Assembly (NCBI GenBank): GCA_963779415.1
Contig: CAVZYA010000002.1
Coordinates: 1,280,001-1,344,000, forward strand
Source of the DNA: an uncultured Acidobacteriota bacterium
GTDB taxonomy: Bacteria; Acidobacteriota; Thermoanaerobaculia; UBA5066
Direction: 5' to 3'
Length of the DNA stretch: 64,000 nt
A program made the position numbers and the translations under genes. The number at the start of each line of letters is the position of its first letter. Position 1 is the stretch's first letter. Below, piece by piece: positions 9,399 through 15,245 of this stretch. The notes beneath the pieces are model-generated. The model was not told where the DNA came from. It ran no database searches and was given only the letters and a program-made list of their open reading frames with translations.

Positions 9399-9911
9399 AT
9401 GACGAACGACAACGGGACGGTGAGGACGGGTCCGGAAACCGCCGAGGCGCTATTTCTCGACCGCGCGCAGGTGGAGCGGTTGATCGGTCTGGCGTTCCGG
9501 CGGTTCGGGATCTCGCGGGCGGACGCCGAGGAGGTGCTGGCCGAGACGCTCCTCGAGCTGTCGGCGAGCGATGCCCTCGTCAAGAGCCCGAAGGGCTTTG
9601 CGTTCCGCGTTTTCTACGTCCGTTGCTGCAGATGGCTCGAGCGCGAAGGGCGCTCGCGTGTCGAGACGGCGGGGCTGGATCCTTCCGCGGGACGGCCCGT
9701 GGCATACGCCGGCCCGGGACCGGAGTGGACGCTGGCGCTGAGACAGGGTTTCGCGCGGCTGTCACCTGTCTGCCGGCGGCTCCTGACGGGCTACTACGTC
9801 GAAGGCTTGTCGCTGAAGGAGACCGCGGAGACGACGGGACACTCGTCGAAACAGGTCTGGAAGCGGCTGGATGACTGCCTGAGGAGGCTGAAGAGATGCC
9901 TCGAAGCGTGA
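9399..9911 (+). CDS. ECF RNA polymerase sigma factor (paralog 1); start uncertain
   Basis: Region 2 ([12 protein letters not shown]) and region 4 ([37 protein letters not shown]); overlaps the downstream anti-sigma gene. Confidence 0.88.
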
Positions 9912-12193
9912 GCGACGCCCACCTCGGAGAATCGGTGCTCCTGCGACTGGCCGTAGGCGATTTGGACCAGGCCGAGCGGCAAGGCGCCGAGCGGCACCTC
10001 TTGGCCTGCGACACGTGCCGCGAGGCATTCCGGGCTTCCGAACGTCTCGACGGCGCACTTCGTTCCGCCGGCCCGGCACTGTTCGACGGCGGCAGCGAGA
10101 CGATGACGCTTCCCGCGGCGGACCCGTTCGCGCGGCGGCCGGAGGCGCGCCGCTTCTCCATGACGGCGAAGTCGGAAACTGTATCGCTGGCCGAGGAGGC
10201 CGTGCATGCGGTCCCCGAAGCGCGGGAGATGGCTACGCGGCTGGGCGCCGCTTTCGAGGATGACGGTGCCCGCGAAGCGGCCCTTGCGGCGCTCGACCTC
10301 GACGCCATTCGCGATCGTCTCGCCCTCGCCTACGCACTCGATGGCAGGTTCGAGCGCGTCGAGCAGGACGCGACACTCTCGGGGCGCCTGGCGGCTGCAG
10401 CCCTCGACCGGATCTCGAAAGAAGCGCCGAGGTCTGCCGGAGGAGTCGCTGAGCGAACGGTGCCGCTCGCGGATCTGAGGGGGAAGGCGCTCCTTCTCTC
10501 CGGAGCCGCGAATCTCTTCGGTGGCGGCTTTGCCGAGGTGGAAGTGCGGCTTCAAACGGCGTGGCGGGCGTTCGGAAAAGGACAGGCGAGCGAGCCGCTC
10601 CTCGCGCGAACGGAGACTCTCGAAGCGCTCCGGCGGGTCGTCGAAGGGCGATGGAAAGAAGCCGAAGCCCTGGCGGCCCGGGCCGGCGAGACCTTCGCGT
10701 TCACCGGCGCCGAGGCGGATGCGGCACGGGCCACTCTCGCATCGGGCCTCGCCGCGTGGGGAGAGGGCCGAAACCGCGCGGCGCTGACGTTGCTGCGGAA
10801 AGCCGCCCTCGGCTTTCAAAGGGCGGAAGCGTGGGGCGGCTTCTCGATAGCGGCTTGTGCAGCCGCGCTCTGCCTCGCCGCGGACGGACAGGTTGCGGAA
10901 TCGCGCCGCGCCTTCTGCGACCTGCGCCGCCGGAAGGCCCGCCGCGCCCCGCTCGCCGAGCGTCTGTTCGTCCGGGAGACGGAGCGGATCGCGCTGCTCC
11001 TCGTCAGGGAGCCGGGGAAGAAGAAGGAAGCGACATTCCGCTTCTCGCCCAGCGACATCCTTCTTCTTCGCGCTGCCTCATTCCTCGCGGACGGCATCGT
11101 CAGTGCGGCGCGAGAAGGCGGAGAGAAGCTGGAGGTATCTCTTCGGGCCCTCGACGAACATCCCGCCCGCGCCTTCGCTTTTCTATACACCTGCCAGAAG
11201 GCAGCGCTGCTCGTCGTCCAGGATCCGCTTCGAGCTCTTGAGGTCTCGCGGCGCATCTTCTATGAGGCACAGTTCCTTGAAGAGATCGGCGCAGCCGGCC
11301 GCGAATTACGCGCGGCGCTCGGCCAAGTAACGCAAGCCGAGGGGAAACTCTTGGAATCAACGGCCCTGAATATGCTCGGCTATCCCCTAGAAGCCCGTGT
11401 CGCCGCAGCGAGGGCATGCGAGTTGTTCGGTCGCGGAGACGACGCCGGCTTCGGGAGGGCTCTGGCAAATTATTTCGAGGGCTCGGCCGCACTCTTTGCG
11501 AAAGAGTTCGCGGCGGGTGAGCGACTTCTAAAGAAGGCCATACGAGTCTTCTCCGCATACGACCAGACGAACCTCAGGGCGCGTGCTGAGGGAACTCTGG
11601 GAACGTTGTATCTTTACCGAGGAGACGGGCGACGGGCACTTCCTTTTCTTGAACGTGCCATCGACCTCTTTGACTCGATCGAGGACGAGCGTTTTCTTGC
11701 AGCAGTTCTGACAAACCGGGGGGCGGCGCTCTCTCGCCTAGGTCGGCTTGACGAGGCTCGTACTTGTTACACGCGGGCTCTGATGGTTTCGCGAAGAACG
11801 CAGTCCCAAGCCCAGATCGCGATCATTCGCTCCGGCCTCGCGCTGATCGATATCAATCGCGGCGAATATGCTCGAGCCCTTCAGGCATTTCGAGAGCTCT
11901 CCAGTGAAGAGCGAAGGGAAGGCCGGATGCAGCTCGCCTTCGTTTCCGATCTCTACACAGCCGAATGCCTCGGACGACTCGGACGCAACGATGAGATGGC
12001 TGAAGTCATTCGGAACGTTCGCGCGGAGCGGCGGGGACATTTCGTGGTCTCTCCACTCGCCCTGGCCGAGTTGTTCGCCTGTCTTGATCAGGGAGAACTC
12101 AATGCGAACTTCATTGCTCACGTTCGCTCTTATTTGGAGGACGAAGCCAACGGTATCCAACGCGAGTACCGGCGGTTCAAAGTCGCGGGCTGA
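9896..12193 (+). CDS. zf-HC2 anti-sigma domain + tandem TPR-module protein (765 aa)
   Basis: HLLACDTC (HxxxCxxC) N-terminus; TPR-like helices (AAVLTNRGAALSRLGRLDEARTCYTRAL); no TM segment evident; C-terminal half closely resembles 13258..14673. Confidence 0.88.
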   Translation: MPRSVSDAHLGESVLLRLAVGDLDQAERQGAERHLLACDTCREAFRASERLDGALRSAGPALFDGGSETMTLPAADPFARRPEARRFSMTAKSETVSLAEEAVHAVPEAREMATRLGAAFEDDGAREAALAALDLDAIRDRLALAYALDGRFERVEQDATLSGRLAAAALDRISKEAPRSAGGVAERTVPLADLRGKALLLSGAANLFGGGFAEVEVRLQTAWRAFGKGQASEPLLARTETLEALRRVVEGRWKEAEALAARAGETFAFTGAEADAARATLASGLAAWGEGRNRAALTLLRKAALGFQRAEAWGGFSIAACAAALCLAADGQVAESRRAFCDLRRRKARRAPLAERLFVRETERIALLLVREPGKKKEATFRFSPSDILLLRAASFLADGIVSAAREGGEKLEVSLRALDEHPARAFAFLYTCQKAALLVVQDPLRALEVSRRIFYEAQFLEEIGAAGRELRAALGQVTQAEGKLLESTALNMLGYPLEARVAAARACELFGRGDDAGFGRALANYFEGSAALFAKEFAAGERLLKKAIRVFSAYDQTNLRARAEGTLGTLYLYRGDGRRALPFLERAIDLFDSIEDERFLAAVLTNRGAALSRLGRLDEARTCYTRALMVSRRTQSQAQIAIIRSGLALIDINRGEYARALQAFRELSSEERREGRMQLAFVSDLYTAECLGRLGRNDEMAEVIRNVRAERRGHFVVSPLALAELFACLDQGELNANFIAHVRSYLEDEANGIQREYRRFKVAG

Positions 12194-12217
12194 CGGGCAG
12201 TTGGCTCGAAGTGGAGA

Positions 12218-13257: not shown

Positions 13258-14673
13258 TTAGCTGGCCAGCCGAAGCGGACAGTATTCGCGCTGGACGCCG
13301 TTGGCTTCGTCCTCGAGATACGCCCTGACGTGAGCGACGAGGTCGGCGTCGACGGCGCCCTGGTCGAGGCAGGAGAAGAGTTCCTCGATGGCCGCGGACT
13401 GGCGGAACGGGCTCTCGCTTCGCTGGCCTCGCAGGACGAGAACCATCTCGAACATCTCGTCCTCGCGGCCCAGGCGGCCGAGGCATTCGGCAACGAAGAG
13501 GTCCGAGATGAAGGCTTGGGCCGCCCAGCCCAACGCGCGCTCGTCCCTTGCGATCTCTTCGTAGGACTTCAGAGCGCGTGTGAACTCTCCCCGCATCATG
13601 TCGATCTGGGCGAGGCCGACGCGAATCTGTGTCAGGTGCGCCCTAGATCCGAGTTTTCGGGCCATCCCCAGCGCGCGCGCGAAGCTCGCCTTCGCTTCAT
13701 CGAAGCGCCCGAGACGGGAGAGCGAAATTCCCCGGTTGTTGAGCGTCGCCGTCAGCGGGCGCGCGTCTTCAACTGGATCCAGTAACTCGATCGCGTGATC
13801 GAGATAGGGCAGGGCGCGCTTTTCGTCGCCGCGCTGCACGTACAGCAACCCGAGAGCCGATTCGGCCCGACCCATCAGGCTGTCCTGGCCGAATTCGGCG
13901 AAGACCTTGAGAGCTTTCTTCAGGAGCCGCTCGCCCGCGACGTAGTCCTTGGCGAAGCTGGCCGCCGAGCCTTCATAGTAGTCGGCGAGAGCGAGGGAGA
14001 AGCCCGGGTCGCCAGCAGCCCGGAACTTCTCGCGAGCATCCGTCGCGGCGACGCGCGCCTCGAGGGGATAGCCGAGCATGTTCTGCGCCTGCGATTCGAG
14101 CAGCTTCGCCTCGGCCTGGACGGTCTCGCGCGGGGCAGGAGTGGCGAGGCGGGTGTCGAGGTTTGCGTCCATCAGGGACTGCGCTTCGTCGTAGACGCGA
14201 CGCGAAAGCTCGAGGGCGCGGAGCGGGTCCTGCGGCACCAGGGCGTTCGCCTTCTGGCAGGCGTAAAGAAGCGCGAAGCCGCGGGAGGGGTTGCCGTAGA
14301 GGGCGCGGAGGGCCGCGTCGAGGGCGTCATCGCTTTCGCGGGCGGCAGCGACGATCTCCTCGGCCAGCCCGTCGGCGGCGGAGGCGCTGCGGTAGATCTC
14401 GTCGAGCTTGGGAACGCGCGGCTGGAAGGCGACGGTCTTTCCGCCGAAGTCGGGGATGGCGGGAAGGTCGTCTCCCTCGAGAATGGCGTCGAAGGCCTCT
14501 TCCTCGCGGACGGCCTCCACCAGCTCGCCCAGCTCCCGGAGCCGGACGTCGCAGAGGCGGCACCCTTCGGAGAGGTGCTTGCGGCACTCGTCCAGCCCTT
14601 CGGCCTCCCGCCCGGCGGCGAGGTTCAGAAGGTCCGCCTCGCTGGGGTGGCTCGCCGAGACTAGACGAGGCAT
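13258..14673 (-). CDS. Zinc-finger anti-sigma domain + single TPR-module protein (471 aa)
   Basis: Start [12 protein letters not shown] parallels the paralog's [21 protein letters not shown] zinc motif; TPR helices; overlaps the stop of sigma 2. Confidence 0.88.
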
Positions 14674-15245
14674 TGCCGCATCCTCTTCAGGCATTCCTGA
14701 ACGCGCTTCCAGATCGTCTTCGACGAGTAGCCCGCCTTCTCGGCCGTCTCGGCCAGGGAACACTCGTCGACGCAGTAGCAGCGGATCACCTTCTGGCACT
14801 TGTCGCCGATCCGGCGGAAGGCGCCGGTGACGGCGTTGATCTTCCGGATCTTTTCGGCCTGCCGCTCGCGCTCCTCGGGATCGTAGATGGCGCTGCGGTA
14901 GATCCCGTCGGGGTCGAGTTCCGTCGTCCGGGCGCGGTTGCGCGTGCGCGCCTCGGCGACGTTCTGCGCCTGATGGAGGAACGCCGCGCGGAGGTAGGCC
15001 TTCGGGTCGCGGACGCGCGGGCTCTGCGCGATGACCTTGAGGAAGACGCTCTGGGCGGCGTCCTCGCATTCCTCGCGCGTCAGGCCGAAGCGGACGATGC
15101 CGGCGGCGATGAGACGCGGCCGATAGTGGGAGTTCAGCTCCTCCCAGTTCCACTGGGCGGGGACAGAGGTTCTCAGAGGACCGGTGAGGCCATAGCCTCC
15201 GGATCCCTGCACCTCGGGACGGGTCTCTTCGAACTTGCGAGACAT
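14661..15245 (-). CDS. ECF RNA polymerase sigma factor (paralog 2)
   Basis: [13 protein letters not shown] (region 2), [37 protein letters not shown] (region 4); start placed downstream of the sigma70-like promoter. Confidence 0.88.

Follow-up and report, generated by a model that had tools for sequence, protein, structure and literature searches.

A candidate ECF sigma/anti-sigma module with TPR domains and a linked small repeat-peptide gene in uncultured Thermoanaerobaculia

Does an open reading frame (ORF) of 51 amino acids with three identical repeats, lying beside genes for an extracytoplasmic function (ECF) sigma factor and a tetratricopeptide repeat (TPR) protein, encode a real peptide, and does that peptide belong to the circuit of the sigma factor? 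We addressed this question for a locus of an uncultured Acidobacteriota bacterium, using a 64,000-nt stretch (the window) of its 4.36-Mb genome (G000). Two operons converge in this region of about 66% G+C, and in each of them an ECF sigma factor gene (sigma1 or sigma2) overlaps the gene of a soluble partner (ZAS-TPR1 or ZAS-TPR2) that combines a zinc-motif N-terminus with a TPR domain (overlaps of 16 nt for sigma1/ZAS-TPR1 and 13 nt for sigma2/ZAS-TPR2; Table 1). The small ORF and a further gene, bs140, lie between the operons on the minus strand, the small ORF 172 nt downstream of ZAS-TPR2, which is also encoded on that strand. That two paralogous sigma/TPR operons converge here had been noticed in an initial annotation of the DNA, and its features were all found where it had placed them, from ORF overlaps and Pfam and NCBIfam matches; it lacked two parts, the bs140 gene and the promoter of the peptide operon. 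Overall, the small ORF proved to be a conserved gene behind an ECF-type promoter, and our preferred reading, to which we give a probability of about 0.4, is that the sigma factor transcribes the peptide gene and the TPR anti-sigma factor binds the peptide, giving a feedback or signalling loop.

In the window, a 30-bp unit repeated with 100% identity encodes STGSGLVPVG three times, and no Pfam or NCBIfam model matches the small protein. A scan with a bs140 alignment, one genome per species, gave 28 loci, from which L035 and L052 were excluded, with only 233 and 59 nt upstream of bs140. All 26 remaining loci, with at least 250 nt upstream, carry a small ORF led by a ribosome-binding site (RBS) of GGAGG type, and most of these ORFs start with MDFLFAFF or a similar sequence. 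In 24 of them the ORF ends at its stop codon with 1-4 copies of a unit closing P-[IVL]-x0-1-[GSNA]; the other two (L046 and L061) are disrupted. The initial annotation had suggested searching homologous loci for RBS-led small ORFs with GxGxxPxG-type C-termini, and such ORFs were present, with P-[IVL]-G-type ends, in 26/26 bs140-anchored loci (24 intact) and in 9/11 of the paralogous modules described below. The decisive evidence came from synonymous variation: repeat units inside one gene differ at 99 synonymous versus 20 non-synonymous codon pairs (15 genes; the pairs are mutually non-independent), with the non-synonymous differences mostly at the first residue of the unit. Three loci (L049, L050 and L051) have three identical heptapeptide units each, with 11 synonymous and 0 non-synonymous codon-pair differences, and the codons of the head vary at third positions in relatives. 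At the level of sequence, these comparisons confirm that the small ORF is a real, translated gene with selection on its repeats as protein.

The gene is also distinctive within the genome, in which a descriptor combining RBS, hydrophobic head and P-[IVLA] C-terminus has a single match, the site of the small ORF itself. A profile of 16 peptides run against a set of 5.8 billion proteins found 50 clusters of 40-56 aa, all unnamed or 'hypothetical' and without a Pfam domain, and the ESM Atlas yielded nothing usable for the peptide. Sequencing runs held only small shares of such sequence (at most 0.09 of sampled words), and in four of them all matching pieces were contigs of relatives. In one run, from an RNA library, such contigs extend over bs140 and the 5' part of the small ORF, which hints weakly at expression; neither the promoter nor the TPR gene was covered, from which nothing follows. 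Of the 51-aa gene with a hydrophobic leader and three identical decapeptides that had been described initially, the gene, its repeats, its strand and the hydrophobic head all stand, with one qualification on the leader. The head has no basic n-region, its residue 2 is often acidic in relatives and its hydrophobic stretch spans 11-15 residues; a Sec-type signal peptide would be composed differently, and nothing shows that the small protein is secreted.

The peptide gene lies behind a conserved promoter element. In 27/27 loci (the window and the 26 relatives) we found GGGTCAAA, a 15-17-nt spacer and GTC[TC]NA, followed by GTNAGTGAAGG, a leader hairpin and the RBS. The hexamers are invariant in all of these loci and the spacer sequence between them is free to vary, and for this reason we read the element as a promoter; its AAC-like -35 and GTC -10 are similar to those of ECF promoters generally. 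It sits directly 3' of the TPR gene, in many relatives right behind a clear terminator hairpin. The strict motif occurs once in G000, and the peptide operon is therefore its only recognisable target. A search allowing one mismatch returned five matches, the peptide-operon site and four others, three of them seemingly copies of another repeated element. The leader hairpin is found at the same place in relatives, and Rfam has no family in 12100..13400. Upstream of sigma2, where the sequence is sigma-70-like, no copy of the target promoter was seen. One genome, G003, has the sigma2 pair only and yet keeps the promoter, the peptide gene and bs140, so that sigma2 would suffice if a neighbouring sigma factor drives this promoter. 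From the relaxed promoter search there also came a short element, GGGTCA[AT]G...GGGGTCAGGTC[CT]CA, with three copies in G000 (C1:1379368, C2:288142 and C2:1648070), which is probably a separate dispersed repeat.

Paralogous modules helped to decide which neighbour the peptide gene belongs to. Eleven paralogous sigma/ZAS-TPR loci of 33-45% identity with at least 300 nt downstream were compared (L014, L029/L070, L030, L031 and L063-L069); L032, with only 160 nt downstream of its TPR gene, was excluded. A peptide gene of the same design follows in nine of the eleven, with ends such as ...INAGPIG x3, ...AGVSPIG x3, ...TGTGPIGG, ...RGTKPIGG and ...VKQPAGG. The two loci lacking it are L068 and L063, the latter of the long ZAS-TPR1 type found in the left operon, and ZAS-TPR1 of the window has no peptide gene of its own. 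A tblastn search with the bs140 query P0003 gave no match beside the paralogous modules (L014, L029-L031, L064-L069), and no bs140 was present among the downstream ORFs read in L014, L029-L031 and L069. The paralogs thus keep the peptide gene without a detected bs140, which links the peptide to the TPR protein and not to bs140. A promoter-like element accompanies every paralogous module with a peptide gene: in L029-L031 and L069 it is GGGGTCAAA with a TGTCC -10, and in L064-L066 it is a separate variant, GGTTGAA...CGTCT (3/3 loci). In L065, a hairpin follows the stop codon of the peptide gene. Among 11 distant TPR homologs of 24-35% identity (L003, L016-L023, L025 and L026; L021 is from the unpublished genome G025), none had a convincing peptide ORF under the filters used. 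A second GGGGTCAAA...TGTCT element was noted in L069 (position 1510), about 380 nt past the first, and no small ORF was found behind this second copy.

ZAS-TPR2 relatives occur in 21/41 genomes of the same order, the genome of the window included. Of 301 genomes sampled across the phylum, four, G000 counted, had close homologs at an E-value of 1e-30 or below, all four from the window's own family, and the module appears to be found only in this one family of Thermoanaerobaculia. Of the 28 bs140 loci, 27 come from metagenome-assembled genomes labelled Thermoanaerobaculia, Acidobacteriota or Acidobacteria. The remaining one, L035, is labelled Acidithiobacillales, at odds with all other loci, and mis-binning is possible. 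On the same contig of G006 (L035/L009/L027), a ZAS-TPR1-like and a ZAS-TPR2-like gene follow each other in the same orientation, and they are separated from bs140 by an ORF of 184 aa whose sequence has a nucleotidyltransferase-like motif. Two further loci look rearranged. In L036 (5429..5572; G003), a 49-residue remnant of a ZAS-TPR1 C-terminus stands just after bs140 in a genome without a sigma1/ZAS-TPR1 pair, which looks like the trace of a deletion; in L056 (6852..9688), the sigma1-like match falls into two parts separated by about 2.4 kb, as would result from the insertion of an element into the gene.

Sigma1 and sigma2 carry the sigma2 and sigma4 regions only and match ECF profiles, which places them among the ECF (group IV) sigma-70 factors. 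The sigma2 protein scored 51.6 bits against TIGR02937 (NCBIfam cut-off 42.9); sigma1 reached 38.1 bits, below this cut-off, and 28.5 bits against Sigma70_r4_2, above the cut-off of 25.7. Both ZAS-TPR proteins match TPR_12 at about 1e-11 and are 55% identical across the C-terminal ~370 residues (residues 98-470), and neither has a stretch of membrane-helix grade (maximal 19-residue Kyte-Doolittle averages, KD19, of 1.29 and 1.59; the threshold is usually about 1.6). The zinc motif reads H9, H34-x3-C38-x2-C41 in ZAS-TPR1 and H9, H33-x4-C38-x2-C41 in ZAS-TPR2, and H9, H33, C38 and C41 are invariant in 10/10 ZAS-TPR2 orthologs. ZAS-TPR1 gave weak matches to zf-HC2 (E 0.59) and to anti-sigma models of NCBIfam (E 0.06-0.11). 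For ZAS-TPR2, it is the motif and not a Pfam zf-HC2 match that suggests the zinc-finger anti-sigma N-terminus of the initial annotation. Taken together, the motif, the predicted helix pattern and the gene overlap suggest that the ZAS-TPR proteins are putative anti-sigma factors.

An AlphaFold2 (AF2) model of ZAS-TPR2, based on 10 orthologs (mean predicted local distance difference test, pLDDT, 85.2), starts with three helices, continues with a disordered linker (residues 58-87) and ends in a TPR superhelix of about 19 helices. Foldseek placed the TPR domains of LGN/Pins first (target-normalised TM-score, TMt, up to 0.76), followed by RapJ (with its Phr peptide), RapI, RapF and the kinesin light chain KLC1; Rap proteins stood at ranks 25-50 with TMt 0.49-0.61 (4gyo, TMt 0.61). 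LGN/Pins, RapJ, RapI and KLC1 are all peptide-binding TPR proteins, and LGN/Pins enclose extended peptides. A profile search of the PDB with ZAS-TPR2 found generic TPR proteins only, with RapJ marginal (E 0.0027), and PADLOC returned generic TPR matches and no defence-system protein. A predicted complex between ZAS-TPR2 and the small protein (alignments A2 and A3, respectively) scored 0.01, which amounts to 'no answer' and weighs neither way.

In the proposed loop, the N-terminal zinc domain would hold the sigma factor, free sigma factor would transcribe the peptide operon, the TPR superhelix would bind the small protein via its repeats or its head, and the level, export or processing of the peptide would feed back on sigma release. 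The conserved ECF-type promoter on the peptide gene fits such a loop. Several observations weigh against it. The copy number of the repeat ranges from 1 to 4 while the length of the TPR domain is constant. A loop with its own ligand as the sole visible output needs a further output, and none was found. Zf-HC2 is not among the 25 Pfam families most frequently matched by the 10 ZAS-TPR2 orthologs, and searches of the PDB by sequence gave nothing significant for either the zinc-motif N-terminus or the sigma2 protein; without such a match or a solved relative, we can only infer anti-sigma activity.

Further counter-evidence comes from orthologous loci themselves. Of 22 with the 5' part of the TPR gene in view, 12 gave tblastn matches that lack sigma region 4 and the zinc domain (L039-L041, L043, L045, L046, L048, L049, L055, L057, L059 and L061). 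In these 12, the match to the sigma2 protein ends at residue 108-133 and that to the TPR protein begins at residue 30-55. The ORFs were read in two of them: in L040, a sigma stump of 105 aa precedes a TPR protein of 429 aa that lacks the zinc motif, and L057 is alike with a deletion of different size (approximately 258 nt vs 372 nt for L057 and L040, by arithmetic from the tblastn matches). Deletion sizes thus seem to vary from lineage to lineage. All 12 retain the promoter, the peptide gene and bs140, and the TPR match is unbroken in eight; it is split in the other four, two of which (L046 and L061) also have damaged peptide genes. With sigma region 4 and the zinc domain missing and the rest kept, the adjacent sigma factor is therefore not the sole driver there. 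To judge from these deletions, the TPR protein must have a role beyond anti-sigma activity in such loci, and its TPR domain probably acts together with the peptide or bs140, independently of the zinc domain. The same genomes hold intact paralogous modules with the same -35 element, and paralogous sigma factors may cross-activate the promoters of the zinc-less loci.

An alternative explanation is that the small protein is the output of the system and not its ligand, either a leaderless membrane- or surface-active peptide or a multi-heptapeptide precursor for other cells, with the TPR domain sensing stress, phage or misfolded protein and bs140 as an accessory (immunity protein or chaperone). We consider this explanation doubtful, and several features speak for it: the peptide operon is the sole promoter-motif site in the genome; the peptide gene alone was seen behind the promoter in the paralogs L014, L029-L031 and L069, to which the hairpin after the stop codon in L065 can be added; the hydrophobic head is rich in F; the identical repeats running in register up to the stop codon resemble a multi-copy precursor; and bs140 gave weak leads to BsuPI proteinase inhibitors (3isy TMt 0.55, Atlas 0.87, Pfam E 0.28). 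The lack of a Sec-type signal argues against it, as does the lack of genes for an exporter or a protease among the conserved neighbours; at 11-15 residues, the hydrophobic stretch is shorter than a membrane span would usually be, and such an output role leaves unexplained why the TPR protein is kept beside the peptide gene despite deletion of the zinc domain. In a more specific and unlikely form of a ligand role, the cytoplasmic anti-sigma factor would be a peptide receptor: a precursor with several identical heptapeptides, transcribed by the sigma factor, would release them within the cell or after export and re-uptake, and they would bind the TPR domain and free more sigma factor. If true, an anti-sigma peptide receptor would constitute an autoinducing, quorum-sensing-like sigma switch in a Gram-negative phylum, with paralogous and possibly orthogonal modules per genome.

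The remaining explanations fared worse. That the small protein is a multi-core precursor of a ribosomally synthesised and post-translationally modified peptide (RiPP), with the head as leader, the repeats as cores, enzymes encoded elsewhere and the TPR protein as scaffold, is improbable. Identical repeated cores under protein-level selection would fit it, and ZAS-TPR2 has a weak partial match to NF041717, the TPR protein of a cyclophane RiPP cluster (33.7 bits, cut-off 1125); that match is, however, generic TPR similarity, the cores abut without recognition sequences, and the conserved neighbourhood holds no gene for a modifying enzyme, as a RiPP cluster would. A cis-acting leader ORF whose translation controls bs140 is more improbable still. 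The small ORF does lie 121 nt upstream of bs140 in one transcription unit, with a conserved GC hairpin between them, and its C-terminus is always Pro-Ile/Val-Gly/Ser beside the stop codon, but nine paralogous modules keep the peptide gene with no bs140 detected beside them, and several identical repeats under amino-acid selection are, to our knowledge, not a feature of arrest or leader peptides. Finally, a non-coding tandem repeat that happens to be open in one frame, in GC-rich sequence between genes, would have to be considered if only the window were available, since its repeats are identical as DNA, so that the window alone cannot tell coding from non-coding, and spurious ORFs are many in high-GC genomes. 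Conservation across the family, synonymous variation of the repeats, the 50 clusters and the single genome-wide descriptor match refute this explanation as far as comparative sequence goes.

The proposed loop was also compared with known systems. Like RRNPP systems (Rap-Phr, NprR-NprX, PlcR-PapR, AimR-AimP) and Rgg-SHP, the module has a gene for a cytoplasmic TPR superhelix beside a small gene with its own promoter, whose C-terminal part is the conserved element; SHP peptides are short and hydrophobic with a Gly-Gly end. The effector part is an anti-sigma-like domain with a zinc motif here, in contrast to the helix-turn-helix (HTH) domain or phosphatase/anti-activator bundle of RRNPP proteins, and the peptide differs in having no Sec-type signal and 1-4 identical repeats, in the phylum Acidobacteriota. 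Neither Pfam nor NCBIfam gave ZAS-TPR2 a match to an HTH domain or to the N-terminal part of Rap. The RRNPP affinity proposed initially could therefore not be upheld as membership: ZAS-TPR2 has neither an HTH nor a phosphatase effector domain, the module comes from a different phylum, the peptide lacks a Sec-type signal, and the fold resembles Rap proteins no more than it does eukaryotic LGN. The pairs of zinc-binding anti-sigma and ECF sigma factors RsrA-SigR and ChrR-SigE resemble the module in another respect, as the sigma gene here overlaps a partner gene with an upstream His and H-x3/4-C-x2-C, the ligand pattern of ChrR, and three helices are predicted. Unlike these partners, which have a cupin or nothing at the C-terminus, the ZAS-TPR proteins carry a large cytoplasmic TPR superhelix and do not reach Pfam zf-HC2, and the sequence upstream of sigma2 showed no copy of the target promoter through which the operon could regulate itself. 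The TPR class II chaperones of type III secretion that double as co-activators (IpgC-MxiE, SicA-InvF) couple bound substrate to transcription and are alike in logic, with occupancy of the TPR by a hydrophobic partner controlling a transcription factor; here, however, no secretion system is involved and the controlled factor would be a sigma factor held by a fused domain.

A further likeness is found in DdvA-DdvS of Myxococcus xanthus, in which an anti-sigma factor with a zinc-associated N-terminal domain and TPR repeats controls a small dedicated regulon, a CBASS/CRISPR island (PMC11506125). DdvA is transmembrane, unlike the ZAS-TPR proteins, with a periplasmic TPR fused to a CHAT protease-like domain, and the accessible part of that source describes no peptide partner (PMC11506125). 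TPR repeats also take part in ECF regulation in ECF42, as a C-terminal extension of the sigma factor itself, and in ECF267, in a FecR-like partner, and the accessible part of the source describes no peptide gene with either (PMC7826278). Full-text searches of the literature, seen mostly at abstract level, returned no description of a soluble ZAS-TPR anti-sigma factor with a linked peptide gene.

We therefore regard the module as a narrowly distributed variant of ECF sigma/anti-sigma systems whose function, read from sequence and models, is unproven and to which two new families are attached, one of small proteins and one of beta-sandwich proteins. ECF sigma factors are a major bacterial signalling route, and soluble anti-sigma factors with known ligands are few; this module brings together a family of small proteins that lacks annotation and shows unusually clear selection at the protein level, a regulon with a single promoter, and a TPR domain of the kind that binds peptides. 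Should the peptide be the ligand, the module would represent a new mode of input to ECF factors and an RRNPP-like circuit outside Firmicutes, compact enough (three genes, one promoter) and present in enough paralogous versions that it might serve synthetic switches. If the peptide is an effector, it would belong to a new class of sigma-controlled leaderless peptides from an uncultured lineage of soil and sediment. In both cases, annotation pipelines overlook the small gene or call it hypothetical.

Table 1 Features of the sigma/ZAS-TPR locus (window coordinates)
Feature	Position	Strand	Evidence
ECF sigma factor 1 (sigma1), 170 aa, opens the left operon	9399..9911	+	Sigma70_r4_2 28.5 bits (cut-off 25.7), TIGR02937 E 1.1e-9
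ZAS-TPR1, 765 aa: H9...H34-x3-C38-x2-C41 N-terminus, long helical middle, C-terminal TPR	9896..12193	+	sequence, TPR_12 3e-11
GC hairpin between the convergent operons, candidate bidirectional terminator	12240..12254	.	terminator-like site on + strand
bs140, 140 aa, follows the small protein gene in the peptide operon: predicted cytoplasmic protein with a beta-sandwich fold	12386..12808	-	conserved in 28 loci, AF2
Small protein gene, 51 aa: aromatic-hydrophobic head MIGFFGAFLNLFWNFGGFFNY, then 3 x STGSGLVPVG up to the stop codon	12930..13085	-	
Perfect 30-bp tandem repeat, 3.1 copies, within the small ORF	12932..13023	.	TRF: 100% matches, score 184
RBS GAGGAGG, 4 nt ahead of the small-ORF ATG	13090..13096	-	GAGGAGG or GGAGG at the same place in relatives
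5' untranslated region hairpin CCCTTCG-loop-CGAAGGG	13114..13134	-	70-nt leader, minimum free energy -22.1 kcal/mol, z -1.9
Putative ECF-type promoter: -35 GGGTCAAA, 15-nt spacer, -10 GTCTGA	13157..13185	-	27/27 loci
ZAS-TPR2, 471 aa: predicted three-helix N-terminus (invariant H9, H33, C38, C41), disordered linker, ~380-residue TPR superhelix	13258..14673	-	
ECF sigma factor 2 (sigma2), 194 aa from ATG 15245, behind sigma-70-like TTGACT-N17-ATATGC	14661..15245	-	TIGR02937 51.6 bits

The bs140 protein matches neither Pfam nor NCBIfam models. Its gene is conserved downstream of the peptide gene in the 28 loci, and its family has only 9 cluster representatives among 1.84 billion proteins. The AF2 model (pLDDT 84.8) is an Ig-like sandwich with generic structural neighbours, among which the BsuPI fold (3isy) reached a query-normalised TM-score (TMq) of 0.47 and a TMt of 0.55. 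Only one of the nine members matched PF12690 (E 0.28), and the ESM Atlas gave leads below 0.9 only, the score of 0.87 for the BsuPI fold being no more than a lead; on these values, bs140 was not assigned to the BsuPI intracellular proteinase inhibitors. Between the stop codon of the peptide gene and bs140 lies a GC hairpin without a T-run, CGCGGGGG...CCCGCG (12850..12929, minus strand), conserved in L007 and L008, which could set the ratio of peptide to bs140 product. Downstream of bs140, a 34-aa ORF with an RBS-like site (12218..12322, minus strand) overlaps the GC hairpin at 12240..12254 and is probably a terminator site and not a gene.

Divergent from the left operon, a giant secreted protein of more than 3090 aa (3..9272, minus strand) extends beyond the edge of the window; its sequence includes dozens of Ig-like repeats as well as a long linker rich in Pro and Thr at about 6000..7100. 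The initial annotation had considered this adhesin a plausible output of the system, a role that did not hold up: the only copy of the promoter motif in the genome is that of the peptide operon and none lies at the adhesin gene, a -10 element is missing from the GGGGGGTCAAG that precedes sigma1, and no relative of the adhesin was found in the related loci (L001-L070), where it is not syntenic with the module. No exporter, protease, radical-SAM, cyclodehydratase or transporter gene was found among the conserved neighbours, and the module is flanked instead by pyruvate phosphate dikinase, which is conserved there, and by housekeeping genes.

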